This document shows positions 1,531 to 28,514 of a DNA stretch of 28,514 nucleotides, piece by piece. The notes beneath the pieces are model-generated. The model saw only the letters and a program-made list of their open reading frames with translations. It was not told the origin of the DNA and did not search any database. The first letter of the stretch is position 1. Each line of letters opens with the position of its first letter. This DNA is from Bdellovibrionales bacterium (GTDB lineage Bacteria; Bdellovibrionota; UBA1018; CAIMNF01), in contig JBEIJY010000031.1 of NCBI GenBank assembly GCA_040380025.1, positions 1-28,514 on the forward strand. The letters run 5' to 3'. Both the position numbers and the translations under genes were made by a program.

Positions 1531-1573
1531 TATTCATGAATTGTGAGATGAATGAAATCGCAGAGTTAAATGC

Positions 1574-1592
1574 AGTCTCTTCGTCTCCACCA
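1574..1592 (+). other. Putative att site: duplicated 3' end of tRNA-Ala or tmRNA
   Basis: AGT-CTCTT-CGTCTCC-A-CCA parses as T-loop end, T-stem 3' strand, acceptor strand with U70, discriminator A73 and CCA. It lies just after the integrase stop and before a terminator. Confidence 0.7.
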
Positions 1593-1598
1593 AATTAC

Positions 1599-1628
1599 AA
1601 AAGCCCGGGCTTCGGCCTGGGCTTTTTT
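1599..1628 (+). terminator. Rho-independent terminator
   Basis: AAGCCCGGGC-TTCG-GCCTGGGCTT stem with a C(UUCG)G loop followed by a T run. The preceding A run suggests it may be bidirectional. Confidence 0.85.
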
Positions 1629-1696
1629 ATTGGGTCTTGTAATTACGGGAACTTAGCCGACAAGAGCCAGGGCGTGCACCGGGCTCACATCACTCT

Positions 1697-11748: not shown

Positions 11749-12945
11749 CTAGATGCCCAGCTCCACGTTAAAACGGGCAATCCACGCATCCTCGCTCAGG
11801 GACTGCCGGGTGAGATCACCCTGAAACTTGACCCGATGAGAATCAAGATAGTAATTCAATCCTGCCGTCGTCTGCGCCATGAGCATGTTTTTCGGATCGA
11901 TCCGGGACCGCCCGAGTGGGCTCACGCGAGCGAACCGTCCCACGACCTCAAGCCGGTCGCTTAAGAGATACCCGGACTGGGCCATCCACCCTGAGCCTTC
12001 GAACAAAGCCCGAGTCGCACCCAGTGCCCCGTTTGGGGAGCTCCGGTGCCCGAACTCGGCCTGGAACGACCATCCGCGGAATTTTGCGATCGCATCAAGA
12101 AGGGTCACCGTTTGATCGCTTCGTATGGGATCACCGGTGGCCGGATCGCCCGTGGTGGTATAAATCGCGCCGATGGTTCCGCCGGCGCGATTCGAGCGTA
12201 GAAACCGCGCAAGCGTGGCCCCTAGCCCGAGACGAAATGACGGATGCCTTCGAAGGTCGCCCTCGACATAATCTTCTCGTCCGAGAAACGCACCAAAAGG
12301 CAGAACTTCGACTCGTCCCACATAAGCGAGGCCGGAGTCAGAAGCAGAGCCTGCGTTGCGCCCCTCACCCGTAGAAACGGATGCACGGACATTCCACAGA
12401 TCACGACGATAAAGAGCCTGGATTCCGAAATCGCGATCGATATTGAACACCCGATTCATCAAAGAACGATCGGCGAACTGCAGATCGCCCGAGGAGATCA
12501 CCCTCTGCCGGTTGCCCGGAAGCTTTCCCTGTCCGAAGGACACCGAGAGGGTTTGATCGGAATCCTGAAGAATCGCATAGGCGAAATTCGCATCCCTCAG
12601 AACCCCAGGGAATTTGCTCTCATTCCAGTCGAGATCTTCACGACTGAACGACAACTGCAGCTGATACGTGAGGCGCGGGTTTCCTGCATGCCCGGTCAGA
12701 CGCAAGCGTGCCCGCCGGACCCAGGCACGAACCTCGCCCACATCGAGGTCGCTTCCCGACACACTCGAAACCTCCAGAAGGTTCTGCACGCGGAAGCGGA
12801 GCGCGGCTTTGTAGCGCGATTCGGGATGGGCGAAGACGATTCCCTCTTCGAATGAAAGTGGCTCGAAGGGCCCCGCGACATCGGCATGTGCGGCGATGGA
12901 AAAAAACGAAATCAAGAACGGAATGACATTCCGACCAACCTTCAC
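11749..12945 (-). CDS. Phosphate-selective porin (OprO/OprP family)
   Basis: GGGGGAG RBS plus GTG, signal peptide (AHA-D), VRRARLRLTG, GQGKLPGNRQRVISSGDLQFADRS, DRDFG, GLNYY, C-terminal beta-strand. Confidence 0.85.
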   Translation of the reverse strand: MKVGRNVIPFLISFFSIAAHADVAGPFEPLSFEEGIVFAHPESRYKAALRFRVQNLLEVSSVSGSDLDVGEVRAWVRRARLRLTGHAGNPRLTYQLQLSFSREDLDWNESKFPGVLRDANFAYAILQDSDQTLSVSFGQGKLPGNRQRVISSGDLQFADRSLMNRVFNIDRDFGIQALYRRDLWNVRASVSTGEGRNAGSASDSGLAYVGRVEVLPFGAFLGREDYVEGDLRRHPSFRLGLGATLARFLRSNRAGGTIGAIYTTTGDPATGDPIRSDQTVTLLDAIAKFRGWSFQAEFGHRSSPNGALGATRALFEGSGWMAQSGYLLSDRLEVVGRFARVSPLGRSRIDPKNMLMAQTTAGLNYYLDSHRVKFQGDLTRQSLSEDAWIARFNVELGI

Positions 12946-12985
12946 GGCAGTGACTCCCCCTATTTTTAAAATCCCCGAAACAATG

Positions 12986-13543
12986 CTAGTGCAGAAGATC
13001 GCGCTTCGGGCCGGGCTCTTCAGGAGCACCGGCGAGAAACGCTTCGTCGCCGACAAAGGTTCCCCGAACAAAGGCTGCGAAGTCAAGAGTCTCGCGGAAC
13101 AACACGGGAAGCGAGAACAGATCGAGTTCCTCGCAAACCCGGGCACTGTACAGGACCTGCACCGATCCGTCCGCACGAAGGCCCGTGCGGCATCGTTGAT
13201 TCCGTGCAAGATTCAAAAACAGGAGTGACTCAAGAACGCTTTGATTCCGGAGGCGCGGAACAAGAGTCCCGAGATGGACCCGGATCACAAAGAAAGGCTC
13301 GCTTAGGATCTCGGGCGTACATACGATCGAGGCCGACACCACGACTCCGCCCTCGGTCGAAAACTTGTACTCGACTCCGGTTTTTTTCGTGGTCCGGCAA
13401 TGGGCAGGATCAAGTCCCTGCTCCCGGAGGTGCGCCTCGATCGCCTGGATCACAGGCAAAATGGCATTCGCGATCGCGGGAACCAGATTTGCAAAAGGAT
13501 TTGGAGTGGACGCGGCTTTCCGGACGGAGTGATTCGACTTCAT
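12986..13543 (-). CDS. Hypothetical protein, possible YbjN/CesT (type III chaperone-like) fold
   Basis: GAGG RBS. Strand-helix 'LESLLFLNLA', then 'GLRADGSVQVLYS' and a terminal amphipathic helix, which resemble that fold. Confidence 0.55.
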   Translation of the reverse strand: MKSNHSVRKAASTPNPFANLVPAIANAILPVIQAIEAHLREQGLDPAHCRTTKKTGVEYKFSTEGGVVVSASIVCTPEILSEPFFVIRVHLGTLVPRLRNQSVLESLLFLNLARNQRCRTGLRADGSVQVLYSARVCEELDLFSLPVLFRETLDFAAFVRGTFVGDEAFLAGAPEEPGPKRDLLH

Positions 13544-13705: not shown

Positions 13706-14350
13706 TCAATAAACCTTAATCGTTACTCTTCTATTTTTGGCGCGGTTCTCAGGAATGGCATGCCCGGAATCATCACGATTCGGCGCCACGGGTTTCATTT
13801 CAGCAAATCCCTCGATGACAGTCCGAGAAAGCACCTCGGACGGAAGCCCGAGTACTCGTAACACCGAGTGGGCCCGCTTCGAGCTAAGCTCCCAGTTGTC
13901 CGAAACAATACCATTCTGCATCGGAGCGTCATCTGTGTGTCCCTGAATTGCAACACGATAGGGAACAGGAATGCCCGACAGCACCCGAGAAAGGTGACCT
14001 ATGATTCGAATCCCATCTTGATTCACCTCGAATTTGCCGCTCTCGAAAAGGAACTTTTCGCGGATGTCGATGTTGAGCTCTCCATTCTTGGCCTCGACGA
14101 GGATTTCCCGTTCCAACGCCATCTCGGAAAGTTCTTTCAGAATCCGATCCTTCAGCTCCCGGATTTCATTCACCTTCGGAGCCTCACCCCTGAGAGTGGC
14201 GGCCGCCTGGCGGTAATCCTCGGCGCTCAACTTCCCTGCCGAAAAGCTGAATAGAACGACGAAAAAAACGAAAAGAAGGATCATCAAATCGCTCAGGCTG
14301 ACCAGCCAGATGAACTCCCCTTCGCTGTGGTTCGCGCGCTTCTTTCTCAC
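13706..14350 (-). CDS. motB: MotB-like stator subunit (TM Asp plus OmpA-like peptidoglycan-binding domain)
   Basis: WLVSLSDLMILLFVFFVVL (conserved Asp), LFESG, GHTD, NWELSSKRA, NRRV. GTGA overlap with motA. Confidence 0.9.
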   Translation of the reverse strand: MRKKRANHSEGEFIWLVSLSDLMILLFVFFVVLFSFSAGKLSAEDYRQAAATLRGEAPKVNEIRELKDRILKELSEMALEREILVEAKNGELNIDIREKFLFESGKFEVNQDGIRIIGHLSRVLSGIPVPYRVAIQGHTDDAPMQNGIVSDNWELSSKRAHSVLRVLGLPSEVLSRTVIEGFAEMKPVAPNRDDSGHAIPENRAKNRRVTIKVY

Positions 14351-15105
14351 AGATGCCCGGTCTTTCCGGAGGACTCCGCGAAGTAGGCCATGGGCTTCCG
14401 TTCCTCAAGCAACTCCAGCCAATGCACGATCTGCTCGAAAGACGCGTTCTCAAGAATATTCATAGTCTGGATCTTCTGCTGAAGAGGAGTCCAAACAACC
14501 AGCGAAAAGAAAAGTCCGAAGAAGGTGGTCAGCAAGGCGACACTCATGCTTGCACCGATCTTGCTCGGGTCATCCAGACTCCCGAGCAGTTGAACCATTC
14601 CAAGAATGGTTCCGAGCATTCCCACCGAAGGAGCCATCCGTCCGCCGAGATTGAAGATCTCCTGAACTTGCTCGAGGCGCCACGAGCTGGTCTCGAATTC
14701 TTTTTTATGGAGCTGGAGAATGTCGGTCACGGGCATCCGGGAAGCAAGACGCTTCAAGGTGCGATGGAGTTCGGGCGAGACCGGTGTTTTCAGGACCTCT
14801 TCGATCGCTTGGGAACCCTCGGTATAGACTCTTGTTCCGAGTCGCGTGATGGCTTCGAAGTCCTCGAGATTACCCGCCCTTTTTGCCGCAACCGAACCCC
14901 GCAACGCAGTGATGAACGACCTGCGGATCGCGCGAAAATCATAAGAAAGAAATATGATCCCGAGCGGACCTACTCCTGTGAGCAACATGGCCGGCCAATG
15001 CAGAAGCTTCATTCCCAGAGTGGCGCTACCGGAGTGCTCGAACCGATACAGGAGAGCCATGCTTCCGATTGTAAGAAACGCTCCGACGACTTTTGATAGA
15101 ATCAC
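14347..15105 (-). CDS. motA: MotA-like stator subunit
   Basis: APSVGMLGTILGMVQLLGSLDDPSKIGASMSVALLTTFFG...TPL, four hydrophobic segments and a cytoplasmic loop. GTGA overlap with the upstream gene. Confidence 0.9.
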   Translation of the reverse strand: MILSKVVGAFLTIGSMALLYRFEHSGSATLGMKLLHWPAMLLTGVGPLGIIFLSYDFRAIRRSFITALRGSVAAKRAGNLEDFEAITRLGTRVYTEGSQAIEEVLKTPVSPELHRTLKRLASRMPVTDILQLHKKEFETSSWRLEQVQEIFNLGGRMAPSVGMLGTILGMVQLLGSLDDPSKIGASMSVALLTTFFGLFFSLVVWTPLQQKIQTMNILENASFEQIVHWLELLEERKPMAYFAESSGKTGHL

Positions 15106-16724
15106 GAAGCCACCTCACGGAATCTACCGAGAAGCTCTCTTGCGGAACTCTTGCGGTCCTCCTCGGGCAGATCGCCGAGAACCTGGATCTGACTCTCCAC
15201 CAGCGAACGGCGCTCCTCGGGCAGATTGGATAGAAGAACATTCAATGTATCGCCCGTGGTCGAAACCAGAGCTTTTGCGAGCCTCTCGTTATCAAACTGT
15301 TCCAAGACCTTCCGGATCCGTTCCTTCGGCAAACGAGCGACATCCTCGATTCCGAAGCTGAATTTTTTGAGCTTCTGATACAGCGCCGGCATGGAAGCCT
15401 CAAGATCCTTCAGCAAGACCTCCTGGGCGTCGGAGTTCATCAGAATCTCGGTCCAGAACCGGGCATCCGCCTGATTCAGGCTTCCGAGATCCTTCGGGAT
15501 GGTCCGGATCGAATCTCTCACTGAAGCCTCGATCTTCAGAATCTGCGAAACTTCCATATGTTTCGCCTCGATGGAGCGGGCCATGAGTTTCAAACGTTCC
15601 TCGGGAAGAATGGATTCCAGAACCCGTGCAACCGTGGATGCCTTCACAAATCGCAGAACCACAGCAGCGTCGAGCGGATCAAGGGTCCGGACAAGAGTGA
15701 TCATCTGATCATCACTCATGGATTTCAGAAACCCGAAAAACCGGTCGCTCTGCCAGGCCTCGAGCGCCACGAATTCATTGAAGCTCCGGATGAAGGATTG
15801 GATTTTCCTTCCCCGTTCCGAATCCGCCATGGACACCGGCGTCTCGGGGAATTCAAAATCAAGGCCGGTAACCAAGTTCCGGAATCCGGGTCCATCGAGG
15901 ATTCCGCACAGTTCCGATTTCTCCTCCTTGGAGAGATGGGCGAAGTAGCTCTTGAAATTTCCGGTATGGGTCAAGAACAGGGTCATCAAAGCGGCGCGGC
16001 GCTCGTGAAACGCGCTCGCATCGGCTTCGGTGGAAGCGGCATCGGCGCCGGGCACCGGCACTCCGGCAGAATGGATTCCAATCTCGCTTCTTTTCTGCTT
16101 GCTGCGAAAACTCCGCATGAGCAGGAAGCCCACACCAATGGCCAGAGCGGTGAGCAAGGCTGCGATGATTACGTTCAAGCTCCATGCCTCATCCGACTCC
16201 TGCTTTGACTCCCGCCTCATTGTCACCGGGGTCATCGTGAACTCGGCTTTCGGCCCGTAAACCGAGAGTCTGCGTACAATAAGCTCCTTGACCTGGTTCT
16301 TCAATGAATCGGGCAGGGTCTCATCGACCACCAAATTCACCCAGATCTTTCCGAGAACCTCTTTGTCCACATTCTTGAAGAACTGCCGAGTCGTCTCTCC
16401 CGGGGTGGTTGGCTCCTGTGTGGCCGCTTTCGGGAAATGATCGACCTGGAACCCGGGCATCTCCGGAAGGTCTTCCTCTTTCGACTCCGTCTTCGGGGGT
16501 TGGAGGCTAAGGAGCTCCCCCTCGGTGATTTTTTTCTCGGTCACGGTATCGACACGCGCGACCACCTGAAGAGAATACTCAGACCGATTGAGGATGCGAT
16601 TGACCACATCCACCAAATCCGCCTTGACCCGGTCTTCCAACGCAGAAAGATTCTCGGCCGGAACCGAAGTGGCAAGACCGATCATGCCCATAAGGAGGAC
16701 GAAATAAAACCTATGTATCTTCAT
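15102..16724 (-). CDS. FliF-C(RBM3)-like / transmembrane / FliG M+C-like fusion protein
   Basis: Signal peptide; LEDRVK...LQVVARVD...MPG...GKIWVNLVVD...QVKELI (FliF RBM3 pattern); TM helix; FFGFLKSMSDDQM...AVVL (FliG-M); FGIEDVARLPKERIRKVLEQFDNERLAKAL...LSNLPEER...LG (FliG-C). ATGA overlap at 16721-16724. Confidence 0.75.
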   Translation of the reverse strand: MKIHRFYFVLLMGMIGLATSVPAENLSALEDRVKADLVDVVNRILNRSEYSLQVVARVDTVTEKKITEGELLSLQPPKTESKEEDLPEMPGFQVDHFPKAATQEPTTPGETTRQFFKNVDKEVLGKIWVNLVVDETLPDSLKNQVKELIVRRLSVYGPKAEFTMTPVTMRRESKQESDEAWSLNVIIAALLTALAIGVGFLLMRSFRSKQKRSEIGIHSAGVPVPGADAASTEADASAFHERRAALMTLFLTHTGNFKSYFAHLSKEEKSELCGILDGPGFRNLVTGLDFEFPETPVSMADSERGRKIQSFIRSFNEFVALEAWQSDRFFGFLKSMSDDQMITLVRTLDPLDAAVVLRFVKASTVARVLESILPEERLKLMARSIEAKHMEVSQILKIEASVRDSIRTIPKDLGSLNQADARFWTEILMNSDAQEVLLKDLEASMPALYQKLKKFSFGIEDVARLPKERIRKVLEQFDNERLAKALVSTTGDTLNVLLSNLPEERRSLVESQIQVLGDLPEEDRKSSARELLGRFREVAS

Positions 16725-17347
16725 ACCGAACCACCTTCCATCAAAGCAGGCGCCTCGCGACGGGAGGGATCCAGAGAACGGGCCTTTTCCCATGCTTCCG
16801 CCGCCTCTTTTTCCCTGCCTTTCAGCTTGAGCAGACTGCCTTTCATCATCCAGGCCCGAACGGACTCGGGTTTCAGCTCAAGAGCATCATCCACCACCGC
16901 TTCCGACTCCGAAAACTTCCTTTGGTTGTACAATCGATTCGCCCGTGTCAGCGATCGCTCTACCTGACGGTCTACGGAACCGGCAGCCGTTTCATCGAAC
17001 TTCTCTTCGGACAGCGCGGGGGCCGGTACCGGCTCGGCGGATGCGGCGGATGGTGCCGCTGCACTTGATGCGGAGGGGGCGGCCGCAACCGGCGCTTCGG
17101 GCGGATTCACCGGGGTCGTATTCAATACCAGCTGAATCGGTGCCGGCTTCAGATCATCCAAAGGAATGGTGAACCGATACGACTTCAGCTTGGCGAATTC
17201 CTCACTCCCGACAAGCGTCTTGGTCCCGTAGGGAGTGTTCAGGATGAGAACGTTTTTTCCGCCGGTGGCTCGAAAAACCGGAGCTTCAGCCGCAAGAGCC
17301 CCGTTCACGATCACAAAAGAAACAGCAAGGATTCGAATGGAGTTCAT
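16721..17347 (-). CDS. Secreted tetratricopeptide-repeat protein
   Basis: Signal peptide, Ala/Pro-rich linker, TPR pair (ANRLYNQRKFSESEAVVDDALELKPESVRAWMMKGSLL...AWEKARSLDP). Confidence 0.85.
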   Translation of the reverse strand: MNSIRILAVSFVIVNGALAAEAPVFRATGGKNVLILNTPYGTKTLVGSEEFAKLKSYRFTIPLDDLKPAPIQLVLNTTPVNPPEAPVAAAPSASSAAAPSAASAEPVPAPALSEEKFDETAAGSVDRQVERSLTRANRLYNQRKFSESEAVVDDALELKPESVRAWMMKGSLLKLKGREKEAAEAWEKARSLDPSRREAPALMEGGSV

Positions 17348-17350
17348 GGA

Positions 17351-18313
17351 TTATTTCCCCAAAGAGAACCCGACACTGACGGTGCCGGCGATCATGGTGG
17401 TTGCGTCGGTCTCTCCGGATGTTGCCGGGATCAGACCAAGCAAACCGGCGTGGATGAATGAGAACGAACTCAAAAACACATAGTGACCGATCCCAAACAT
17501 GACCCCTTTGGAATCAGAGGAAAATCCGTATCCGGCATCGAAATGAGTGAGTCCGTAGATGCGACTCCCTTTGAACCGGTTCCGCAGGGCGATCGAAGGC
17601 ATGACATAGATGGGGTTGTTCCGCGTGAATCCGGAAAACCCTCCGATCACCAAACCGCCTTTTCCGGGAGCAATCTCTTCCATGATGGCAAGGTTGAAAT
17701 TAAGGGGAAACGACCCACCCTCGCCATCACCGTTCCCGGCGAATGAGAACGCCGCCCCGGTGCCGATCATGATTTGGGTGGCGGCATCCCGGAAGTCGAG
17801 ATTCGGAATCCGGAAACTTTCGGCCGCAATCATCTCGCCGTTGTTGGGTCCGATCAGGGTCGCCTGGGCCATGATCGAGAATGCGGTCCGATAGACAACA
17901 AGACTCAAAAACGACTCCGCCCCCGTTTTCTTTCCGAGCTCGATCAGCTCCTTTTGATCGGGAGCGCCCCGAGTCACTACGATCCGGTCGCCTTCGACTT
18001 GAACCCGCGGAGCAAGACATTCTTCGCAATGATAAACCTTGGTGGTTTTCCCCTCGGTGATTTCGTGGGTGAGATCCGCAAGGAGGATCGGCTTGAGATG
18101 CTCTTCGAGAGGGGCGGTCATGTCGATCGAGAAAACCGAGAGACTCGCCGGAGCTGGCTTAAGTTCATTGATCCATCGACCGACCTCCTGACCGAGATTC
18201 TTCATCGCCATGAACTCACCTTCGGTCGCCGCTTCGGCTCCAGCGCCGAAGGACAGTCCCGCTGCGGCCAACGCGAACATTCCAAAAAACTTCCACTGAG
18301 TGAACTTGTGCAT
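17351..18313 (-). CDS. Secreted protein: FlgO/CsgG/TolB-N-like domain with CxxC plus probable C-terminal beta-barrel
   Basis: Signal peptide (AEA-A); LIELGKKTGAESFLSLVV...AQATLIGPNNGEMIAAESF; C-terminal alternating Gly/aromatic strands ending VSVGFSLGK. Confidence 0.6.
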   Translation of the reverse strand: MHKFTQWKFFGMFALAAAGLSFGAGAEAATEGEFMAMKNLGQEVGRWINELKPAPASLSVFSIDMTAPLEEHLKPILLADLTHEITEGKTTKVYHCEECLAPRVQVEGDRIVVTRGAPDQKELIELGKKTGAESFLSLVVYRTAFSIMAQATLIGPNNGEMIAAESFRIPNLDFRDAATQIMIGTGAAFSFAGNGDGEGGSFPLNFNLAIMEEIAPGKGGLVIGGFSGFTRNNPIYVMPSIALRNRFKGSRIYGLTHFDAGYGFSSDSKGVMFGIGHYVFLSSFSFIHAGLLGLIPATSGETDATTMIAGTVSVGFSLGK

Positions 18314-18557
18314 ACGGATCCGATCTTTCTCTCGAAACAGTTGGGTGATATAAAATTCGTCGCGGATTTTAACATCGTCGACCTGTTTAATCAACTAAAT
18401 ATTGTTTGATACAGCTCGTGATTTATTTGATTTTAAATTCGCGATTGTTCTGTCTACCGCAAGCTTCTGTCAGCTGAGGTCACTGCAAAGAATATTTATT
18501 TCACCCTCTGGTTGCAGCGAACCAGCAAGCCTCGTACCTTCTTCCCCTGGAGCCCTC

Positions 18558-19163
18558 ATGCCGATTCAACGAAAAAAGTCTTTCCTGAAAAGCACGATCC
18601 TTCACGTCATTTTGATCGGCGCGGTCACGGTGATCCTCACCATCGGGGTGAAATCGCCCGAAACAATCGTCGAGGTGATCTCGCTCGAGAACATCTCGAT
18701 CTCTCGCGGCGTGAAAAAGGCGGTCCATACCGCCGTTCACGCCATCGGACTTCCGCACAAAGAGCCCGAGGCGGAGCACGAAGCGAGCGCCCCTTCGGTA
18801 GAAACCTCTTCGAACCCGAACCCATCACAAGAACAGTCATCCGCTGGGAGCGGAATCCCGGATTCGGTGCTTCAGCAGTACCTGGGCGAAATCCGACAGA
18901 GAATCGAATCGACCAAGCGCTATCCGAAAGATGCACGGATGAACGGACAAGAAGGGATTGTGGGGCTCAGGATTCGCATCGCTCCGGACGGCACCCTGCT
19001 TGAAGTCGAGGTGGAGTCGCCCGCGATGTTTCCTTCATTGAACCAAGCGGCCGTTTCGGCCGTAAAAGCGCATCAAAAATTCCCGGAGGCTCCGTCTTCG
19101 GGTAGTCCACGGACCGAGCCGATCACGCTTCATCTGCCGATCCGGTTCGTCCTCGCGCCCTGA
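18558..19163 (+). CDS. tonB: Energy transducer TonB
   Basis: TM SxxxH-type motif (STILHVIL), YPKDARMNGQEGIVGLRIRIAPDG, LNQAAVSAV, LPIRFVL. GGAG RBS. Confidence 0.88.
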   Translation: MPIQRKKSFLKSTILHVILIGAVTVILTIGVKSPETIVEVISLENISISRGVKKAVHTAVHAIGLPHKEPEAEHEASAPSVETSSNPNPSQEQSSAGSGIPDSVLQQYLGEIRQRIESTKRYPKDARMNGQEGIVGLRIRIAPDGTLLEVEVESPAMFPSLNQAAVSAVKAHQKFPEAPSSGSPRTEPITLHLPIRFVLAP

Positions 19164-19195: not shown

Positions 19196-19216
19196 AAATG
19201 CAACTCCATTGCATTT
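19196..19216 (+). promoter_or_regulatory. Palindromic operator, Zur-like box
   Basis: AAATGCAA-CTCCA-TTGCATTT is a perfect 8-5-8 dyad directly upstream of a ZnuD-like receptor. Confidence 0.7.
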
Positions 19217-19233
19217 ATGATAGCGTCCGCCTC

Positions 19234-21243
19234 ATGACTTCCATCTTTGCTCTTTTTTTCGCGATTTTTGGATTTACTTCGTTTGCCTTCGGAGCGGATT
19301 CACCCGGTAGCGAATATCGCCTCCCCGAAATCAGCGTTCTGGGCGGTGCCATGGGCGGATCCGCCTTTGATGCGCTTCCCTCGGTATCGAAGACCGCGGG
19401 CCAGAAACTCGAAAAAAAGAAAAAATCCACCTTGGGAGAAACCCTCTCGAACGAAGCCGGCGTGAGTTCCACCTTCTTCGGGCCGAACTCCTCGCGCCCG
19501 GTGATCCGCGGTCTCGACGGCGATCGGATCCGGATTCTTGAAAACGGAATCGGACTACTCGACGCCTCGGGAGCAAGCCCCGATCATGCCGTGTCGATCG
19601 ACCCCTTGCTCATCGAATCGGTCGAGATTTTGCGCGGCCCCTCGGCCCTTTTGTACGGAAGCACCGCAACCGGCGGGGTGGTGAACATCAAAACCAATCG
19701 CATCGCCGAAACGCCACTTACCGAGGGCATTACAGAAGTCCGCGCGGGCGCCTCTTCGGTCGATGCGGGCCGGACGATCGGCGCACTCTCGCGCTATCGC
19801 CTCGGGGATTTCGTGCTTCATGTCGATGCTTCTTACCGCAAGTCAGACGATTACTCGGTGCCCGCATTCGCACGAACGGCCGCGGAGCGGGCAGAGAGCC
19901 CGCAGGACCCCGAGGAATTCAAAAGGGTCACCAACAGCGGCAACAAAGCCCTGCAAGGTGCAATCGGCGTGAGCCGCCCGTTTCGCGACGGACACATCGG
20001 GATGGCCGTATCGGGCTATCAATCGGAATACGGAACGGTTCAAGAAAAAGAAGTCACGATCGACATGGACCGCGTGCGGGTGGACGCCTCCGGGGAACTG
20101 AGGCGATTCGGGTTTTTGGATTCGATTCGCTTCAAATCTGCGTTCACCAAGTACGAACACACTGAACACGAAGGCGATGAAGTGGAAACGATTTTCGGAA
20201 ACCGCGGGATCGAATCGCGCGTCGATGCAAAAGTGGATTCGCTCTTTTTCGGGCTCCAGCATCAGTACTTCAAATTGAGCGCAAGCGGAAAAGGGGCATT
20301 TCTGCCGACCACGAGGAACTCTTCGCTCGGCGTGTTCGCCCTGAAAGAAGCGAAGTGGGGCCGATTCACTCCGAGCGCGGGAATCCGACTCGAATCGAAC
20401 GGTGTTGCCTCGGAACAATCGTCGAATGCGGATTTCAATCCGGCGGAGTCGAAGAACTTCTTTGCCCCGAGCGCTTCGCTCGGCGTGCAGTACCAGATTC
20501 CGAAGGCGGAGTCTTCGACCCAGGACTGGATTTTGGGACTTCATTCGACGTAGACGGAGCGGGCGCCGAATTATCAGGAACTTTTTGCGAAGGGAGCGCA
20601 CAAAGCGACCGGGATTTTTGAAAAGGGTGATCGCGGTTTCAAGACCGAGAAAAACATCGGGCTTGAACTTTCGGTGAAAACCAAAGGCCCCGCTCACTCG
20701 GGCCGATTCTCGACTTTCTTTCAGAATTACGCGAATTACATCGCGCTTTCGCCGACCGAGGAATTTAGTCTTGGCCTTCGAGAGCACCATTTCAATGCCG
20801 TCCGCGCGCACTGGTTTGGAGCCGAGCTCGAGTACCAGTACACCCTTCCCCAAAAGTTCCTTCACGGACTTTGGGACCTCGAGTTCAGGACCGATTGGGT
20901 TCGGGGCCTCGACCTGACCCGGAACGGAAACCTTCCGCGCGTGACTCCGGTTCGCGCCACGGTCGGGGTGAACTACCAGCATCGCTTGTTTCGCGCGGAC
21001 TTCGAGTTCCAGCGCGTGGAAGGGCAGGGCTTCACGGCCACGAACGAAAGGGCCACACCGGGATTCAACCTTTTGAATTTCGGCCTTGAGGCCCCTGTCA
21101 CCACCGGATTCGGGACCTTCAAAGCGATCTTTCGGGCATCGAACTTGCTTAATGTCGAAGCCCGGAACCATGTGTCCTTCTTGAAGGAAATCGCTCCCCT
21201 TCCCGGCAGAAACCTGTCGATCGGGATTCAGGCGGCAATCTGA
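19234..21243 (+). pseudogene. ZnuD-like TonB-dependent receptor interrupted by a single in-frame TAG (20551-20553)
   Basis: TLGETL, FGPNSSRPVIRG, ASPDHAV, EILRGPSALLYGS, YEHTEHEG. After the TAG the same frame continues TERAPNYQELFAKGAHKAT...NLLNVEARNHVSFLKEIAPLPGRN. Confidence 0.85.
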
Positions 21244-21432: not shown

Positions 21433-24400
21433 ATGATCCGTTTGGTTCCTCTTCTCAGCACGATTGCTCGCCCGACACGCCACCTGACACCCGGTTCTCC
21501 GGGTCGCGGAGCTTCATGGCTGTCTATCCCTCTTTTTGTTCTTTCGCTCGCGGTGAGCTCGTGCAAACTCGAGAATCCATTTCAGAAGATCGACCCCGAC
21601 CTGAAGAGCCCACCCTCGGCGGACTCGAACTCCTCCATCACCTCCCCTGGCGCGACCGCGGTAATTCCGGACCACATTGAAATCGTGTCGGGGAATCTCC
21701 AGAGCGGGACAGTCGGAACGAGGCTCTCCCAACTGCTCCAATGGCGTGCGATCGACCAGAACGGGGACCCGATCGCAAACGCGAAATTCCGCGTGAGTGC
21801 GATTTCAACGGGGGGACGCACATCCACCACCTCGATGACCTCCGACTCGAACGGCCTCGTGCGTATGAGCTGGACTCTCGGTGGCTCGCCGGGATCGCAG
21901 ACATTGACGGTGACCGGAACCGACACCTATACGGGATCTCCGAAGATCCTCACCTTCACCGCAACCGCATCTGCGGGAAGTGCGGCGTTTTCGAATTCCT
22001 CGATCTCTGCAAGCGGCCCTGTGCTTGCGGATGGAGCCGACAGCAGCACCATCACCATCCAACTGAGAGACGCGTTCGGGAACGCCGTCGTCGGAGTCAC
22101 GCCCACCTTCTCGGCGACCAACACCAACAACGCGAACACCTATGGAGCCTGCAGTTCGACAAATTCGAGCGGTGTTTCGACCTGCTCGATGGCATCGGGA
22201 TTTGCGGAGTGGAAGGCGGTATCGCTCCGGTCGCCGATCACGAAGGCCGGAAACATCGTTCTGTTTTACCGGTACATCGGAACCAAGGCGAAGCTCGAGT
22301 TCTCGACCACCGCACCCTCCGCCACCACCGCCGGAGCGACGCTTTCGCAATCACCTACCGTGAGGATTCTGGATACCCGGGACCGGCTGGTCTCGGCGTC
22401 CGATTCGATCACGATCGGCATGTTTTCGGATGCCGCGTGCACCACTGCGATCACAACCACTCCCTCGGGTGAGCAGGCGCTCACCGGAACAAAGCAAAAA
22501 AATGCGACCGCAGGGGTCGCTGTGTTCAACAATCTTTCGATCAATCGGGCGGGGATGGTCTACCTGAAGGCCACCTCAGGGACTCTCTCTTCGCCATGCT
22601 CGAGTGCCATCTCGGTCGGAGCAGGAGCGGCATCTGCGAGCCAAAGCTCGGTGACTGTTTCTTCGGCGAGCGTGGCATCAGGATCATCAGTGACCGCAAC
22701 CCTGACCGCGAAGGATGCATTCGGAAACCCTAACCCCTCAGGAATTGCCGGCACGGGATCGATCGCGTTCACCTCGAGCATTGTGGGTGGAACCGGAACC
22801 TTCGGCGGGGTCAGCGATGCGGGATCGGGGATCTATACCGCGGACTTCACCGGTATACTCGCTGGCGTGGTCACGATCGGCGCGACGATATCTTCTGCAG
22901 CGGCTGGAACAAGCGCGAGCCTGACCGTGACGGCCGGAACTGCGACGAAACTCGCCTTCACCGCGGGTCCTTCGGGTGTGAACACCGAGGATTCGGTATT
23001 CACGAACCAGCCGGTGGTGACCGTGCAAGACGCGCAAGGAAACACGGTGACAGGATCCTCCGCTCCGGTGACTCTGGCCATCGGAAGCAATCCCGGATCA
23101 GCATCCCTCGCCGGCGCCATCACGGTTAACGCATCGAACGGAATTGCCACCTTCAGCGGCCTGTACCTCGACGAATCCGGAACCGGATACACGCTCACCG
23201 CAGCGAGCCCGGGGCTTACGAGCATTACGAGCGCAAGCTTTGATGTCGAGCCGAGCTCGGCTACGAATCTGGTGTTTTCGACCGAGCCCTCGACGACCGG
23301 AACCGCTGGCTCGACCTTTGGCATTCAGCCCGTGATTCGGGCGCATGACAACGATGGCGCCACCGTTACGACCTATACAGGAGCCATCACTCTTTCGGCC
23401 TACTCGGACGCATCGTGCACCACTGCAATCTCGAGTACGCCGAACGGAAGCACCCCTCTCGGTGGAACCCTGACCCTGAGTGCCATTGCGGGCGAAAGTA
23501 CATTTTCGGGCCTTTCGGCTCGAATTTCGGGAACAGTATACCTGAAGGCCTCTGCCTCAGGACTCTCGAGCGCCTGTTCGGGTGCGATCACTGTTGCACC
23601 GGGTACGTACTCTGCGGCGGAATCGATCGTGGAGCTCTCGGCAGGCACAGTCTCGTCGGGTTCTTCGGTTACCGCGACGCTCACCACCAAGGATGCCTAT
23701 GGGAATCTCGATCCTTCTGGCCTCCCTGCCTTGGGCTCGATCGCTTTCACCTCGAGCATTGTGGGTGGAACCGGCACCTTTGGCGCGGTCTCGGCGGCGG
23801 GATCTGGCGTGTACACCGCGGACTTCACCGGAGTGCTTGCAGGAGCGGTCACGATCGGTGCCACGATTTCGTCTGTCGCAGTCGGAACCAGCGCGAATCT
23901 TACGGTGAATCCCGGCCCCGCGACGAAACTTGCGTTCACGACCGAAGTTTCGAGCTCGAACACGGCAGGCGCCTCGTTCGGGATACAACCCGTTGTGACG
24001 GTGCAAGATGCGGCGGGGAACACCGTGACCAGCTCCGGTGCGAGCGTTGATCTTGTGATCGGATCGAACCCGGGGGCGGGCACGCTCTCGGGTACTGCGA
24101 CTGTGAGCGCAGTGAACGGTGTCGCAACTTTCTCTGGGCTTTCGATCAATAAAACCGGAACGGGCTACACGCTCATGGCTACCAGTGCTGGGCTCACCGA
24201 TGACACGAGCTCTGGATTCAATGTGATTTCGGGCGCTGCCACTACTCTGGCAATCACCACCCAGCCTTCTGGCTCGAACACTGCTGGTTCTGCTTTTGGT
24301 ACCCAGCCTGTGATCACGGTGTTGGATGCCGAAGGAAACACCGTGACGGGCTCCACTGCCCCTGTGACACTTACAATCGACACGAATCCAGGCTCAGGAA

Positions 24401-27400
24401 CACTCTCAGGCACCGCCACCGTGAACGCAGTGAACGGCGTGGCGACTTTCTCGGGGCTTTCGATCAACAAAACAGGCACAGGCTATACACTGCAGGCCTC
24501 AAGTACGGGGCTCACGGACGATACGAGCACGGCCTTTGATGTGGTTCCGGGGGCGGCGGCTTCGCTTGCCTTCACCACTGAACCCGCGAGCTCTGCCACC
24601 GCCGGTACTGCGATCTCGACCCAGCCGGTGGTGACCGTTCAAGATGCCCAAGGGAATATCGTCACGGGGTCTTCCGCGAGCATTGCACTCTCGGCCTTCT
24701 CGGATGCTTCGTGTACCACCGCGATCGCAACCACTCCGAATGGCTCCAACACCTTGGATGGAACCCTGAGTGTGAGTGCTTCATCGGGAGTGGCGAGCTT
24801 TTCGGATGTGACTGCAAACCGTGCCGGTCCCGTTTATCTTAAGGCCGTGGCGGCGGCCCTTGTGAGCGATTGCTCGAGTGCGGTCACAGTGGAACCGGGT
24901 GTTTACTCGGCATCGGAATCGAACCTTGCGCTTTCGGCGAGTACCGTTGCTTCAGGAAGCTCGGTTACCGCGACTCTTTCAGCCAAAGACCAATTCGGGA
25001 ACTCAAGTCCGTCGGGCTTGCCGGCGTTGGGTTCGATCGGAATGACCTCAAGCAGTGTCGGGGGTACGGGGACATTCAGCGCGATTTCGGATGCGGGATC
25101 GGGTGTCTATACAGCCCAGTTCACGGGGGTGGTTGTCGGAGCCGTCAGTATTGATGCGACGATCTCTTCGGCAGTGGCCGGGGCGAGCGTAAATCTCACG
25201 GTAACGCCGGGATCAGCGTCGAAGCTCACCTTCACGACGAGCCCCTCAAGCCCGAACACCGCCGGTGCACCATTCGGGACCCAGCCCGTGGTGACCGTGC
25301 AAGATGCGGAGGGGAACACCGTCACCGGATCAAATGCCTCGATCGCTCTTGCGATTGGCACGAACCCGGGCTCGGGCACGCTCTCGGGCACGGCTACTGT
25401 CAGTGCTGTGAACGGTGTGGCGACCTTCTCGGGACTCTCTCTGAACAAGGCTGGAACCGGTTACACCCTCACCGCTTCGAGTGCTGGTTTGACGAGCGAC
25501 ACGAGTGCTGCATTTGATGTCGTACCGGGAGCCCCAAGCAAGCTCACTTTCGTGACTGAACCTTCGAGCCCGAACACGGCAGGAGCAGACTTCTCTACCC
25601 AGCCCGTAGTGGCGGTGCAAGATGCCGAAGGGAACACCGTTACCGGCTCCACTGCTTCGATCACTCTGGCCATCGATACGAACCCGAGCTCTGGAACACT
25701 CTCGGGCACGGCGACCGTGAACGCAGTGAACGGTGTGGCCACCTTCTCGGGGCTTTCGATCAATAAATCCGGAACAGGATACACGCTCACTGTAACGAGT
25801 GCTGGCCTTACTGACGATACGAGCTCCGCGTTGGATGTGAATCCGGGCCCTGCCACCACTCTTGCCTTCACCACCGAACCCGCGAACTCTGCCACCGCCG
25901 GTGCCACTCTCTCGACTCAGCCCGTGGTGACCGTGCAAGATGCCGAAGGGAACACTGTCTCAGGCTCTTCTGCAAGCATCGCTCTATCGGCGTTTTCGGA
26001 CTCTTCGTGTACCACCGCCATTTCGACCACGCCCGATGGATCCACCACTTTGGGAGGAACCGTCATCCTGAACGCCTCATCTGGCGTGGCTGGTTTTGCA
26101 GGAATCTCGGCGAATCGCGCAGGAACCGTATACCTGAAAGCCGAGGCTTCGGGCCTTGCAACCGACTGTTCGAGTGCGATCTCGGTAACACCCGGCGCTT
26201 ATACCCTGAGCAACAGCGCGGTCACACTTTCTTCGAGTTCAGTGAACTCGGGCTCGTCCGTCACCGCAACCCTCACCGCCAAGGATGCCTATGGGAATCT
26301 CGATCCTTCTGGCCTCCCCGCCTTGGGCTCGATCGCGTTCACCTCGAGCATTGTGGGTGGAACCGGCACCTTCGGCGCGATCTCGGCGGCGGGTTCTGGC
26401 GTGTATACCGCCTCGTTCACGGGAGCAGTCGCTGGAGCGGTCACGATCGGTGCCACGATTTCCTCAAGTGCGGTTGCGACGAGCGCGAATCTTACGGTGA
26501 ATCCGGGTACCGCGACCAAACTCGCCTTCACGACCGAAGTTTCGAGCTCGAACACGGCCGGAGCCGCCTTCGCGACCCAGCCCGTGGTGACGGTGCAGGA
26601 TGCGGAAGGGAACACGGTGACCAGTTCCGGTGCGAGCGTTGATCTTGTGATCGGATCGAACCCGGGAACAGGAACTCTCTCGGGAACAAGCACCGTCAAT
26701 GCAGTGAACGGTGTCGCGACCTTCTCGGGGCTCTCGATCAATAAAACCGGAACGGGCTATACGCTCACCGCTGCTAGCGCGGGGCTCACAGACGATACGA
26801 GCTCTGCATTCGATGTGACTCCAGGCACTGCCACTACCCTTGCAATCACGACCCAACCTTCGAGCACGAATACAGCAGGAACGGCGTTCGCCACTCAGCC
26901 GGTGGTCACGGTATTGGATGCCGAAGGAAACACCGTGACGGGCTCCACTGCCCCTGTGACTCTCGCGATCGACACGAACCCGAGCGCTGGAACACTCTCG
27001 GGAACTGCCACAGTCAGCGCCGTAAACGGTGTTGCCACCTTCTCGGGCCTTTCGATCAACAAAACAGGCACGGGCTATACACTGAGATCCTCAAGTACGG
27101 GACTCACGGACGATACGAGCACGGCCTTTGATGTGGTTCCCGGTGCGGCAGTTTCTCTTGCCTTCACCACCGAACCCGCGAGCTCTGCGACTGCCGGAGC
27201 CTCTCTCTCGACCCAGCCCGTGGTGACCGTGATGGATGCGGGAGGAAACACCGTTTCAGGCTCCTCTGCAAACATTGAACTTTCGGCTTTCTCGGATGCT
27301 TCGTGCACCACTGCGATTGCGACCACTCCGAATGCCTCCAACACCCTGGACGGGACCCTCACCGTGAACGCGTCTTCGGGTGTGGCAACGTTCACCGGAA

Positions 27401-28514
27401 TCTCGGCGAATCGCGCAGGGTCAGTGTACCTGAAGGCTGTGAGCGCGAGTCTTGCCAGCGATTGCTCGAGTGCGATCACGGTCGCTCCGGGGGCATATGC
27501 CTTAAGCGACAGCGCGGTCACGCTTTCTGCAAGCACAGTCAACTCGGGCTCGTCCGTCACTGCGACCCTCACCACGAAAGATTCATATGGAAACGCAAAC
27601 CCATCCGGGCTTCCGGCCTTGGGCTCGATTGCCTTCACCTCGAGCATTGTTGGCGGAACCGGCTCTTTTGGCACGGTCTCGGCAACAGGCTCTGGCGTGT
27701 ACACCGCCTCGTTCACGGGAGCGGTCGCAGGAGCGGTCACGATCGGCGCTACGATTTCTTCGAGCGCGGTTGCAACGAGCGCGAATCTCACCGTGAACCC
27801 GGGTACCGCGGCTAAACTTGCCTTCACCACCCAGCCTTCGAGCACGAACACTGCAGGATCCACATTTGGAACCCAGCCGTTGGTCACAGTACAGGATGCC
27901 GAAGGAAACACCGTCACGAGTTCCACCGCCTCTGTGACGATCGCCATTGGCACGAATGCGGACTCGGGCACACTCTCGGGAACAGCAACCGTCAACGCAG
28001 TGAACGGCGTCGCGACCTTCTCGGACCTTTCGATCAATAAAACAGGCACTGGCTACACCCTCGCCGCCACAAGCTCAGGACTCACCGGAGCCACGAGCTC
28101 TTCGTTTGACGTAATTCCTGGCTCTGCTACGACCCTTGCAATCACGACCCAGCCTTCGAGCACGAATACAGCAGGAACGGCATTCGCGACCCAGCCGGTG
28201 GTCACAGTACAGGACGCCCAAGGAAACACAGTCACGAGTTCCACCGCCTCTGTGACCATCGCCATCGGCACCAATGCCGGCTCGGGCGCGCTTTCAGGAA
28301 CAGCAACCATCAGTGCCGTGAGTGGGGTCGCGACCTTCTCGGGCCTTTCGATCAATAAAACTGGCACCGGCTACACGCTCGCCGCCACAAGCTCAGGTCT
28401 CACCGGTGCAACCAGCTCGAGCTTCACCATTCAAGCCGGCGCGGCCTCCGCCCTTGCCTTCACGACCGAGCCGGGAAGCAATGCCACCGCCGGAGCCTCC
28501 CTCTCGACCCAGCC
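21433..28514 (+). CDS. Giant Ig-like/invasin-domain repeat surface lipoprotein (adhesin), >2360 aa, 3'-truncated by the window
   Basis: Frame 1 reads in-frame from ATG 21433 to the edge (spot-checked). Lipobox-like LAVSS-C (Cys at 21562), ADG...TITIQLRDAFGN, and repeated QPVVTVQDAxGN and GVATFSGLSINKTGTGYTL. Confidence 0.9.
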   Translation, partial: MIRLVPLLSTIARPTRHLTPGSPGRGASWLSIPLFVLSLAVSSCKLENPFQKIDPDLKSPPSADSNSSITSPGATAVIPDHIEIVSGNLQSGTVGTRLSQLLQWRAIDQNGDPIANAKFRVSAISTGGRTSTTSMTSDSNGLVRMSWTLGGSPGSQTLTVTGTDTYTGSPKILTFTATASAGSAAFSNSSISASGPVLADGADSSTITIQLRDAFGNAVVGVTPTFSATNTNNANTYGACSSTNSSGVSTCSMASGFAEWKAVSLRSPITKAGNIVLFYRYIGTKAKLEFSTTAPSATTAGATLSQSPTVRILDTRDRLVSASDSITIGMFSDAACTTAITTTPSGEQALTGTKQKNATAGVAVFNNLSINRAGMVYLKATSGTLSSPCSSAISVGAGAASASQSSVTVSSASVASGSSVTATLTAKDAFGNPNPSGIAGTGSIAFTSSIVGGTGTFGGVSDAGSGIYTADFTGILAGVVTIGATISSAAAGTSASLTVTAGTATKLAFTAGPSGVNTEDSVFTNQPVVTVQDAQGNTVTGSSAPVTLAIGSNPGSASLAGAITVNASNGIATFSGLYLDESGTGYTLTAASPGLTSITSASFDVEPSSATNLVFSTEPSTTGTAGSTFGIQPVIRAHDNDGATVTTYTGAITLSAYSDASCTTAISSTPNGSTPLGGTLTLSAIAGESTFSGLSARISGTVYLKASASGLSSACSGAITVAPGTYSAAESIVELSAGTVSSGSSVTATLTTKDAYGNLDPSGLPALGSIAFTSSIVGGTGTFGAVSAAGSGVYTADFTGVLAGAVTIGATISSVAVGTSANLTVNPGPATKLAFTTEVSSSNTAGASFGIQPVVTVQDAAGNTVTSSGASVDLVIGSNPGAGTLSGTATVSAVNGVATFSGLSINKTGTGYTLMATSAGLTDDTSSGFNVISGAATTLAITTQPSGSNTAGSAFGTQPVITVLDAEGNTVTGSTAPVTLTIDTNPGSGTLSGTATVNAVNGVATFSGLSINKTGTGYTLQASSTGLTDDTSTAFDVVPGAAASLAFTTEPASSATAGTAISTQPVVTVQDAQGNIVTGSSASIALSAFSDASCTTAIATTPNGSNTLDGTLSVSASSGVASFSDVTANRAGPVYLKAVAAALVSDCSSAVTVEPGVYSASESNLALSASTVASGSSVTATLSAKDQFGNSSPSGLPALGSIGMTSSSVGGTGTFSAISDAGSGVYTAQFTGVVVGAVSIDATISSAVAGASVNLTVTPGSASKLTFTTSPSSPNTAGAPFGTQPVVTVQDAEGNTVTGSNASIALAIGTNPGSGTLSGTATVSAVNGVATFSGLSLNKAGTGYTLTASSAGLTSDTSAAFDVVPGAPSKLTFVTEPSSPNTAGADFSTQPVVAVQDAEGNTVTGSTASITLAIDTNPSSGTLSGTATVNAVNGVATFSGLSINKSGTGYTLTVTSAGLTDDTSSALDVNPGPATTLAFTTEPANSATAGATLSTQPVVTVQDAEGNTVSGSSASIALSAFSDSSCTTAISTTPDGSTTLGGTVILNASSGVAGFAGISANRAGTVYLKAEASGLATDCSSAISVTPGAYTLSNSAVTLSSSSVNSGSSVTATLTAKDAYGNLDPSGLPALGSIAFTSSIVGGTGTFGAISAAGSGVYTASFTGAVAGAVTIGATISSSAVATSANLTVNPGTATKLAFTTEVSSSNTAGAAFATQPVVTVQDAEGNTVTSSGASVDLVIGSNPGTGTLSGTSTVNAVNGVATFSGLSINKTGTGYTLTAASAGLTDDTSSAFDVTPGTATTLAITTQPSSTNTAGTAFATQPVVTVLDAEGNTVTGSTAPVTLAIDTNPSAGTLSGTATVSAVNGVATFSGLSINKTGTGYTLRSSSTGLTDDTSTAFDVVPGAAVSLAFTTEPASSATAGASLSTQPVVTVMDAGGNTVSGSSANIELSAFSDASCTTAIATTPNASNTLDGTLTVNASSGVATFTGISANRAGSVYLKAVSASLASDCSSAITVAPGAYALSDSAVTLSASTVNSGSSVTATLTTKDSYGNANPSGLPALGSIAFTSSIVGGTGSFGTVSATGSGVYTASFTGAVAGAVTIGATISSSAVATSANLTVNPGTAAKLAFTTQPSSTNTAGSTFGTQPLVTVQDAEGNTVTSSTASVTIAIGTNADSGTLSGTATVNAVNGVATFSDLSINKTGTGYTLAATSSGLTGATSSSFDVIPGSATTLAITTQPSSTNTAGTAFATQPVVTVQDAQGNTVTSSTASVTIAIGTNAGSGALSGTATISAVSGVATFSGLSINKTGTGYTLAATSSGLTGATSSSFTIQAGAASALAFTTEPGSNATAGASLSTQ
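23265..28514 (+). repeat. Intragenic tandem repeat, 1296-bp (432-aa) unit, about 4 copies visible
   Basis: The SDxSCTT Cys codons lie at 23416, 24712, 26008 and 27304, exactly 1296 apart. Confidence 0.9.

Follow-up and report, generated by a model that had tools for sequence, protein, structure and literature searches.

The flagellar ring protein FliF builds the S-ring and its collar with its third ring-building motif (RBM3), and RBM1 and RBM2 of FliF surround the export gate. To our knowledge, every well-studied motor made from FliF, FliG and MotAB is flagellar, with a rotor built around a type III export gate. Here we describe a five-gene unit whose central gene encodes a 540-amino acid (aa) protein in which an FliF RBM3/collar-like domain, a transmembrane (TM) helix and a FliG-like part are predicted to follow one another in one polypeptide. 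The unit lies in a contig of a Bdellovibrionales bacterium (JBEIJY010000031.1, assembly GCA_040380025.1). We call the whole analysed stretch of 28,514 nucleotides the window, and all coordinates are positions in it unless another contig or locus is named.

Among the counterparts of this protein are the FliF-FliG fusions engineered in Salmonella and Vibrio (PDB 8z4d and 8z4g; PMC11481574, PMC10941966). As far as the consulted parts of these reports go, they likewise hold a ring-forming FliF part and FliG in one polypeptide, and the Vibrio fusions form S-rings (PDB 8z4d; PMC11481574). They are laboratory constructs with a full-length FliF, RBM1 and RBM2 included, working inside a flagellum; the fusion in the window is natural, has neither RBM1 nor RBM2, and comes with its own stator and envelope partners. 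In the full-text literature searched, supplements aside, a natural FliF-FliG fusion or such a cassette is undescribed, engineered fusions being the only ones found, and the consulted sections of a 2025 survey of MotAB evolution (PMC12505986) make no mention of the cassette. The parts themselves are well known. What is new relative to the papers searched is a natural RBM3-only FliF fused to FliG, a co-diverged stator and the envelope partners.

The fusion gene occupies 15102..16724 on the minus strand. An earlier reading made from the letters and translations of the window (the sequence-only reading) had called this open reading frame (ORF), and the call holds: the open frame runs over 15102..16793 (-), the ATG at 16724 gives the 540-aa product and abuts the stop codon (16721-16723) of the gene before it, and in genome G019 an orthologue has an equivalent start, overlapping its own upstream gene by 4 bases. 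A word-indexed homologue search with the protein returned the query as its sole match. When 1.84 billion representatives were searched exhaustively with HMMER, 564 homologues appeared at E<=1e-3, 95 at <=1e-10 and 67 cluster representatives at <=1e-30; the best 150 of the 564 open with full-length proteins of 513-600 aa. Across a family alignment of 65 sequences, G91, F92, N479 and R505 are invariant, and conservation reaches 90% or more at P90, W324, R536 and the FGFL of an FFGFL motif (aa 330-333). A chance ORF or a pseudogene was ruled out by this conservation together with the confidence of the structure models described below (pLDDT 87-88).

The N-terminus, FYFVLLMGMIGLATSVPA, resembles a cleavable signal peptide, with hydrophobic residues at aa 6-23 and VPA at their end. 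We place this signal peptide at aa 1-23 (16656..16724, minus strand), a hydrophobic core followed by VPA/EN, from reading the sequence and from the AxA-like ends of the same segment in homologues; it would presumably be cleaved. The putative RBM3-like ring-building motif with its beta-collar-like hairpin follows at aa 24-170 (16215..16655, minus strand) and carries an invariant PGF (aa 90-92) in its tip loop. A single TM helix spans aa 181-204 (16113..16184, minus strand) and runs into the basic segment RSFRSKQKR (aa 204-212). In a Kyte-Doolittle scan, 19-residue stretches with a mean above 1.6 occur only at aa 179-206; the model has a helix at aa 179-210, and the segment aligns with the second TM helix (TM2) of FliF. 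The sequence-only reading had named both the signal peptide and the one TM helix with its basic segment, and both are present. The cytoplasmic FliG-like part takes up aa 229-540 (15105..16040, minus strand). We regard this order of domains (signal peptide, RBM3/collar, TM helix, FliG) as highly probable.

Modelled fold and profile comparison both connect the periplasmic domain with FliF. The AlphaFold model of aa 20-182 (67 homologues; pLDDT 87.4) begins with a helix, continues with two strands of 23 and 24 residues joined by a 38-residue loop, and ends with a further helix and strand. Together these make an alpha-beta-beta-alpha-beta core with strands 1 and 2 prolonged into a long hairpin. 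These elements fall where the sequence-only reading had traced an RBM3 pattern: helix at aa 26-42, strand at 50-72 with QVVARVD, loop at 73-110 with P90-G91-F92, strand at 111-134 with KIWVNLVVD, helix at 139-159 and strand at 160-167. FliF RBM3/beta-collar structures rank first in two independent fold searches with the model. In the Foldseek search of PDB all 18 matches at E<=0.001 are FliF chains (E 9.5e-6 to 1.3e-4, probability 1.0), 17 of them from MS-ring, S-ring or RBM3-collar entries and one from an integrative FliF-YlxF model; SpoIIIAG comes next at 2e-3. Core and long hairpin are both aligned by FliF chains only, over 128-132 residues versus 65-91 for the other rows.

With hhalign, the whole family matched 21 FliF sequences of the phylum at Prob 77.7% and E 1.9e-5, and an alignment of the N-terminal part only matched them at Prob 90.6% and E 1.3e-6 over 177 co-linear columns. 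Family positions 21-197 fall on FliF 233-457, that is, on RBM3, collar and TM2, and the PGF of the fusion is in register with the conserved Pro-Gly loop of FliF. The same N-terminal profile gave E 0.03 (12 columns) and E 0.56 with two control families. These results support the view, already taken in the sequence-only reading, that the periplasmic domain is of the ring-building kind formed by RBM3 and beta-collar in FliF. RBM1, RBM2 and the first TM helix (TM1) of FliF are missing, the signal peptide leading directly into RBM3, and in a genome-wide scan canonical fliF is the sole match to PF01514 (YscJ_FliF, RBM1/RBM2) and also the sole match to PF08345 (YscJ_FliF_C); the earlier claim that the fusion lacks RBM1 and RBM2 is thereby borne out.

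The likeness to FliF thus lies in the predicted alpha-beta-[long hairpin]-beta-alpha-beta fold with a TM helix directly after it, and in the conserved Pro-Gly of the hairpin tip loop. The fusion differs from FliF in having a signal peptide in place of TM1, RBM1 and RBM2, a shorter tip loop, and, where FliF has a long cytoplasmic tail, a disordered linker of ~25 residues into FliG. SpoIIIAG and the injectisome ring proteins (RBM domains of PrgK, PrgH, CdsD and YscD) score clearly lower than FliF and align over the core only; none of them is FliG-fused or MotAB-paired, unlike the fusion in the window.

For the cytoplasmic part, Pfam FliG_C (PF01706) matches aa 440-539 at E 1.2e-13 (51.7 bits, cut-off 23.3), and phmmer against PDB sequences aligns aa 330-536 with FliG-MC of Thermotoga maritima at E 4.7e-7. 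Alignment by hhalign with 13 canonical FliG of the phylum gave Prob 98.3% and E 1.8e-14 over 258 columns, family positions 260-541 falling on FliG 65-324. In the AlphaFold model of the whole protein (mean pLDDT 87.8), aa 229-540 are helical. FliG holds ranks 1-13 of a Foldseek search with this model, and the alignments to full-length FliG chains extend over 328-332 columns. The C-domain of the model superposes on 1qc7_B (TMt 0.81, root mean square deviation (rmsd) 1.8 Å) and on the stator-bound FliG_C chain 8ucs_H (TMt 0.79, rmsd 2.0 Å). An MgtE_N match is also present (1.6e-7). The sequence-only reading had called FliG-M-like and FliG-C-like segments, to be given up if only MgtE-N-like folds matched; FliG_C above its cut-off and the 258 FliG columns speak for FliG, and in profile searches of the window protein the FliG_C part of the call stands while FliG_M stays below its cut-off (E 0.016, 15.9 bits vs 25). 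Among the 65 family members Pfam finds FliG_C in 64, FliG_M in 60, MgtE_N in 59 and FliG_N in 18.

As judged from alignment and model, all of FliG is represented in the cytoplasmic part, an N-like domain in reduced form as well as the M and C domains. This part opens with the four-helix N-like domain (aa 229-287), after which come a long helix (301-327) and the M domain (331-408). The C domain lies at about 434-539, and the hinge at the MFXF position reads KFSF. The NCBIfam FliG equivalog TIGR00207 reaches 50.8 bits against a cut-off of 226.7. Canonical FliG is resembled in the order of the N-like, M and C armadillo domains, in the hinge and in an Arg beside the R281 column. It is departed from in the covalent membrane anchor, in the replacement of D288/D289, K264 and R297, and in the degenerate FliM-binding motif EHPQR.

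A quick maximum-likelihood tree of the FliG part (46 rows, unrooted, with several long branches) unites the 13 canonical Bdellovibrionota FliG and E. coli FliG in one clan (SH-aLRT 99) that excludes all 32 fusion proteins; the window protein sits in a 16-row clade (99). Since it falls outside the canonical clan, the fusion is not a recent copy of the resident fliG. The same genome also has two small stand-alone ORFs with little beyond FliG_C, on contig C8 at ~32913-33461 (+) and on contig C20 at 1044-1670 (+), matching PF01706 at E 6.6e-22 and 1.8e-10, respectively; their neighbours are unrelated metabolic genes.

Two stator genes follow the fusion gene on the minus strand. The first (14347..15105) encodes a MotA/PomA-type stator A subunit of 252 aa (Pfam MotA_ExbB, PF01618, 1.1e-18), for which flagellar MotA/PomA rank best among PDB sequences, the alignment taking in aa 11-227. 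The second (13706..14350) encodes a MotB-type stator B subunit of 214 aa (MotB_plug 3e-11, OmpA 8.1e-12) that matches NCBIfam MotD/MotB models down to 1e-35, below their cut-offs. The NCBIfam flagellar stator equivalogs are all missed (PomA 70.2 vs 341, MotD 123.2 vs 283). The motA start overlaps the fusion stop, and the motB start the motA stop, by 4 bases each; the fusion gene is translationally coupled to the MotA/MotB pair. With MotAB and PomAB this pair shares a four-TM MotA with a cytoplasmic domain, the channel Pro, the MotB Asp, the plug and the OmpA-like anchor. It differs from them in a Tyr at the MotA R90 column, and its genes stand apart from the flagellar motAB of the same genome.

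Residue columns were read against E. coli references (NC_000913.3) in nine cognate MotA/MotB and in the 65 fusion-family members; the MotA stretch with R90 and E98 was anchored on a conserved Gly and on the HMMER alignment to PDB MotA. The ion path is kept, with the equivalents of MotB D32 and of MotA P173 and P222 present in 9/9. At the contact surface, the MotA R90 column is Tyr in 9/9, and the E98 column is Glu or Asp in 7/9 (Glu in the window). The FliG part of the fusion has V, E, S, Q and P at the K264, R281, D288, D289 and R297 columns. Across the family D289 is replaced by Gln in 50/65, D288 by Ser in 26/65, R297 by Pro in 31/65, and K264 by Ala, Ser or Leu; the R281 column is Arg or Lys in 34/65 and Glu in the window protein, and the next column is the invariant R505. 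The FliM-binding EHPQR reads LDPLD in the fusion, the family having E in 38/65, P in 40/65 and Leu for Q128 in 28/65. The consulted parts of two reports pair stator and rotor as R90-D288/D289 and E98-R281 (PMC12505986, PMC7564593). By this alignment, one classical salt bridge seems to have been swapped for a conserved Tyr/Gln pair and the other to have been roughly kept. As contact residues are altered on both partners, we read them as a probably co-evolved, dedicated stator-rotor pair.

The whole unit runs from 18394 to 13706 on the minus strand, successive genes of the five being spaced by 3, 0, -4 and -4 bases. Promoter-like sites on the minus strand 5' of gene 1 are consistent with one transcript and are no evidence for one. 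Gene 1 (17351..18394) is an ORF at a conserved position in related loci and encodes a secreted envelope protein, of 347 aa if read from its TTG; the real start is probably the ATG at 18313, giving 320 aa. Its product has an N-terminal alpha/beta domain with an invariant CxxC (C87 and C90 in 9/9 homologues) and a Gly-rich, beta-barrel-looking C-terminal half. Pfam, NCBIfam and PDB sequences gave no match to it; ESM Atlas features place it at 0.96-0.97 to LpoB/CsgG/TolB_N clusters and at 0.91 to OMP_b-brl, which we take as a lead only. At its C-terminus stands a conserved G-F-x-L-G-R/K, where outer-membrane barrels typically have an aromatic residue. Gene 2 (16721..17347, minus strand) encodes a secreted tetratricopeptide repeat (TPR) protein of 208 aa (Pfam TPR_16 1.5e-8, TPR_2 3.2e-8); its N-terminal domain is conserved, and an Ala/Pro-rich linker connects this domain with the TPR repeats at the C-terminus. 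The TPR protein and the LpoB-like, barrel-like product of gene 1 probably serve as partners in the periplasm and the outer membrane, as stator scaffold or as output. None of the five genes is a fliM, fliN, rod, hook or filament gene.

A pattern scan with an 8-sequence alignment, over one genome per species, yielded eight related loci. Their titles name Bacteriovoracia, Pseudobdellovibrionaceae, Bdellovibrionales and the older labels "Deltaproteobacteria" and "Pseudomonadota", and all are Bdellovibrionota-type metagenome-assembled genomes. The order TPR, fusion, MotA, MotB is found in all eight, and gene 1 in seven, the eighth locus breaking off at the end of its contig. Of 401 genomes sampled from the phylum, 69 were matched by the N-terminal profile at E<=1e-3 and 19 of them strongly (E<1e-20); 15 of these 19 belong to one family, of which they are 15 of 34 genomes. 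No close orthologue was found in same-genus genomes, either in 16 by full-length search or in the 14 of the phylum sample. Among the same-genus genomes sampled the 540-aa subtype occurs in the window genome only, its closest orthologues belonging to two other families, one within the order and one more remote within the phylum; transfer or repeated loss could account for this patchiness. A distant family member occurs in the cultured Pseudobacteriovorax antillogorgiicola (WP_143478117.1, 19% identical), labelled "hypothetical protein" at NCBI and "FliG" in UniRef, and a still more distant cluster includes a protein labelled Bacteroidota.

Weaker matches were found in 9/14 same-genus genomes, at least seven of them in proteins of 618-664 aa that also end in FliG_MC. 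We call such longer Bdellovibrionota proteins (577-642 aa in the cassettes compared) type II; they also occur as 579-585-aa proteins in single-contig genomes of 3.4-4.2 Mb in another genus. Like the fusion in the window they have an RBM3-like N-terminal part and a FliG_MC-like end. They differ in a FliG part only ~21-24% identical, a larger MotB, extra genes and another gene order. The three type II loci that reach far enough have neighbours encoding a MotA-like protein (270-293 aa), a MotB-like protein (319-378 aa) and a TPR lipoprotein of ~300 aa; a fourth is cut by a contig end. Just before the type II fusion of 577-627 aa stands a gene for a protein of 325-343 aa (locus L053, 5348-6322 (+); L054, 8466-9440 (-); L055, 8805-9833 (-)). 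In genome G002 the 325-aa protein resembles, over its own first ~190 residues, the RBM3-like part with which the fusion begins (blastp 4e-8, 25% identity), and a FliG part is absent. The 325-343-aa protein may be a second ring-building protein without FliG.

We consider it moderately probable that the five genes specify a stand-alone machine of rotor and stator, put together from parts of the flagellar motor and without a type III export apparatus. The signal peptide would export the 540-aa protein and the one TM helix would anchor it. Its periplasmic RBM3/beta-collar domains would pack laterally into a large ring, in the manner of RBM3 in FliF. Such a ring is expected because FliF RBM3/collar regions alone have been solved as 33-mer rings (PDB 8ftf and 6sd1, as far as the consulted parts of these entries go) and because the engineered fusions form S-rings. 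One covalently attached FliG would hang below each ring subunit on the cytoplasmic face, for a rotor stoichiometry of 1:1. Co-translated stator units of the MotA5B2 type would be held by MotB on the peptidoglycan, conduct ions via the conserved Asp and Pro and exert force on the C-domains of FliG. With its rebuilt contact surface the stator should favour the fusion rotor over the resident flagellar FliG. A switch complex is not expected, since the FliM-binding motif is degenerate. As the unit also has no RBM1/2 and no rod, hook or filament gene, its output must be something else; surface movement or an envelope or prey-contact function are candidates, and the TPR and outer-membrane-like partners are the obvious proteins to deliver it. 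The data show the domain order, the homology of either half, a conserved operon and preserved ion-path residues; rotation, stator specificity, the absence of an export gate, the roles of the partners and ring assembly itself are what we infer from this arrangement.

Several observations weigh against this proposal. Ring assembly is read from fold likeness alone, and the TM-scores of the periplasmic model to FliF are modest (TMq 0.37-0.45, rmsd 8-14 Å), which we read as a core-collar tilt that differs, or is mis-modelled, in the monomer model. The kinship that the sequence-only reading expected profiles to reveal in the N-terminal part appears with hhalign and fails to appear with Pfam: YscJ_FliF_C has no match to the fusion protein at E<=1 and is absent from the 25 most frequent of the 83 families matched by the 65 members, Pfam and NCBIfam models gave no match to aa 24-180, and a hidden Markov model (HMM) of the N-terminal part found chance-level matches only, and no FliF chain, among PDB sequences. 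These negative results would suit a convergent or generic alpha-beta-beta-alpha-beta domain, such as those of OsmC, the C-terminal domain of CzrB or BON/OsmY-like proteins, in what would then be a membrane-anchored FliG paralogue. We think this very unlikely, because only FliF chains align over core and hairpin together, FliF supplies every significant Foldseek match, and the co-linear hhalign columns with the Pro-Gly in register far outscore the controls. A further difficulty is that the classical torque-helix charges are largely lost, which might mean that torque no longer reaches the FliG part. The protein might then be a static membrane scaffold or regulator, its FliG-like part binding or parking MotAB-type units or another partner without being turned, and its RBM3-like domain oligomerising or docking periplasmic partners. 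The replacement of most of the K264, D288, D289 and R297 charges fits such a role, as does the lack of an axle- or filament-like product in the unit; armadillo domains of the FliG/MgtE_N type also occur in non-rotary proteins, the MgtE_N match showing how close the folds are. The stator, however, keeps all ion-conduction residues tested, the plug and the peptidoglycan anchor, which would be costly for a non-motor role. The replacement residues are themselves conserved (the Tyr, the Gln and the invariant Arg505), which suggests a maintained contact, and the FliG_C fold superposes on the stator-bound chain. A static scaffold is in our judgement decidedly improbable.

The remaining difficulty is the flagellum. 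In the host genome (98% complete), contig C1 carries an ordinary fliF-fliG and a motAB similar to that of E. coli (MotA 38% identical), and 18 of the 19 strong-match genomes have FliF, the 19th (G281) having FlhA; independence of this subtype from the flagellum is accordingly a supposition. G281 had been considered as a flagellum-free genome, having no FliF match, and was dropped because FlhA is present, split over two contig ends. The fusion might therefore be an accessory of the flagellar motor, co-assembling with FliF through RBM3, for example in S-ring positions where RBM1/2 are not required at the export gate, or forming an extra rotor ring; the adjacent MotAB would be an alternative flagellar stator, and the TPR and outer-membrane proteins stator scaffolds, for which PflA/PflB and the basal disk of Campylobacter-type motors offer a comparison. 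RBM3 homology would in principle permit mixed rings, and the consulted part of one report says that three motAB pairs of B. bacteriovorus power one flagellum (PMC13689555). Against the accessory role, no flagellar gene stands next to the cassette in the window or in the eight related loci, and because FliF is found in 353 of the 401 sampled genomes, its co-occurrence with the fusion is uninformative. Contact residues are altered on both MotA and the FliG part, the FliG part lies outside the clan of canonical FliG including that of E. coli, and the FliM-binding motif is degenerate. We also count it for a separate machine that the genome has canonical fliF-fliG and motAB in addition to the cassette. 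A divergent cassette in genome G103 (91% complete) bears on the same point. It comprises a 369-aa protein, TPR protein, MotA, MotB and a 557-aa fusion (FliG_M 1.1e-8, FliG_C 2.8e-8), and searches of G103 for FliF (two models), FlhA, FliP and flagellin gave no match, as likewise in four genomes of its family. This gives modest support to flagellum independence. Its weight is lessened by possible mis-binning, as G103 has 380 contigs and 3% contamination with the cassette on a 12.6-kb contig, and by the finding that its fusion protein is unmatched in the four other genomes of its family. Overall, we hold an accessory of the flagellar motor to be unlikely.

The genes flanking the unit encode TonB, a TonB-dependent receptor in two pieces, a giant protein with Ig repeats, a porin and a 185-aa protein without known family. 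Their homologues were not found beside the cassette in the eight related loci, and they have no evident link to the unit. The TonB gene (18402-19163) lies just upstream of the split receptor and is divergent from the motor cassette. The receptor is in two plus-strand ORFs, 19198-20553 with the plug and the start of the barrel and 20674-21243 with the end of the barrel; the split could be a frameshift, a pseudogene or an assembly error. The giant protein (21433-28512 (+), open at the window end) exceeds 2,360 aa and has Big_1 and Invasin_D3 Ig-like domains. Overlapping ORFs of equal size ~2.6 kb apart in its gene (23415-24050 and 26007-26642; 23697-24149 and 26289-26741) suggest a long tandem duplication. 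On the other side, the porin ORF (11749-13209 (-), from a TTG; Porin_O_P 1.7e-8) overlaps the 185-aa ORF (12986-13543 (-)) by more than 200 bases, its start probably being over-extended; the 185-aa ORF has no tblastn match across the eight related loci. The window starts with a phage-type integrase (391-1530 (+)) and a truncated rve transposase (2119-2634 (-)), in a region of GC content 0.45-0.49 versus 0.53-0.61 elsewhere, a mobile-element remnant ~11 kb from the cassette.

A bolder reading is that the unit is a free-standing, ion-driven engine of the envelope that never bears a filament or an export gate. Its ring of fusion subunits would spin in the inner membrane, torque would pass through the beta-collar to the TPR and outer-membrane partners, and the engine could go back to a rotor-stator core present alongside, or earlier than, the union of rotor and export apparatus. 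Such descent is conceivable because the FliG part branches outside the clan of E. coli and Bdellovibrionota FliG; we rate the reading as a long shot. If true, it would make the cassette a living model of the origin of the flagellar motor. If the rotor-stator machine that we favour does rotate, it would be a minimal unit in which ring size control and torque could be studied without ~25 other flagellar proteins. It would also inform on the evolutionary order of assembly of rotor, stator and export gate, and provide a test case for the re-use of flagellar motor parts for another envelope task in predatory Bdellovibrionota. The finding bears as well on the multiple motAB pairs of Bdellovibrio-like genomes: in the type II loci examined, the MotA/MotB-like pair adjoins the fusion gene and not flagellar genes.

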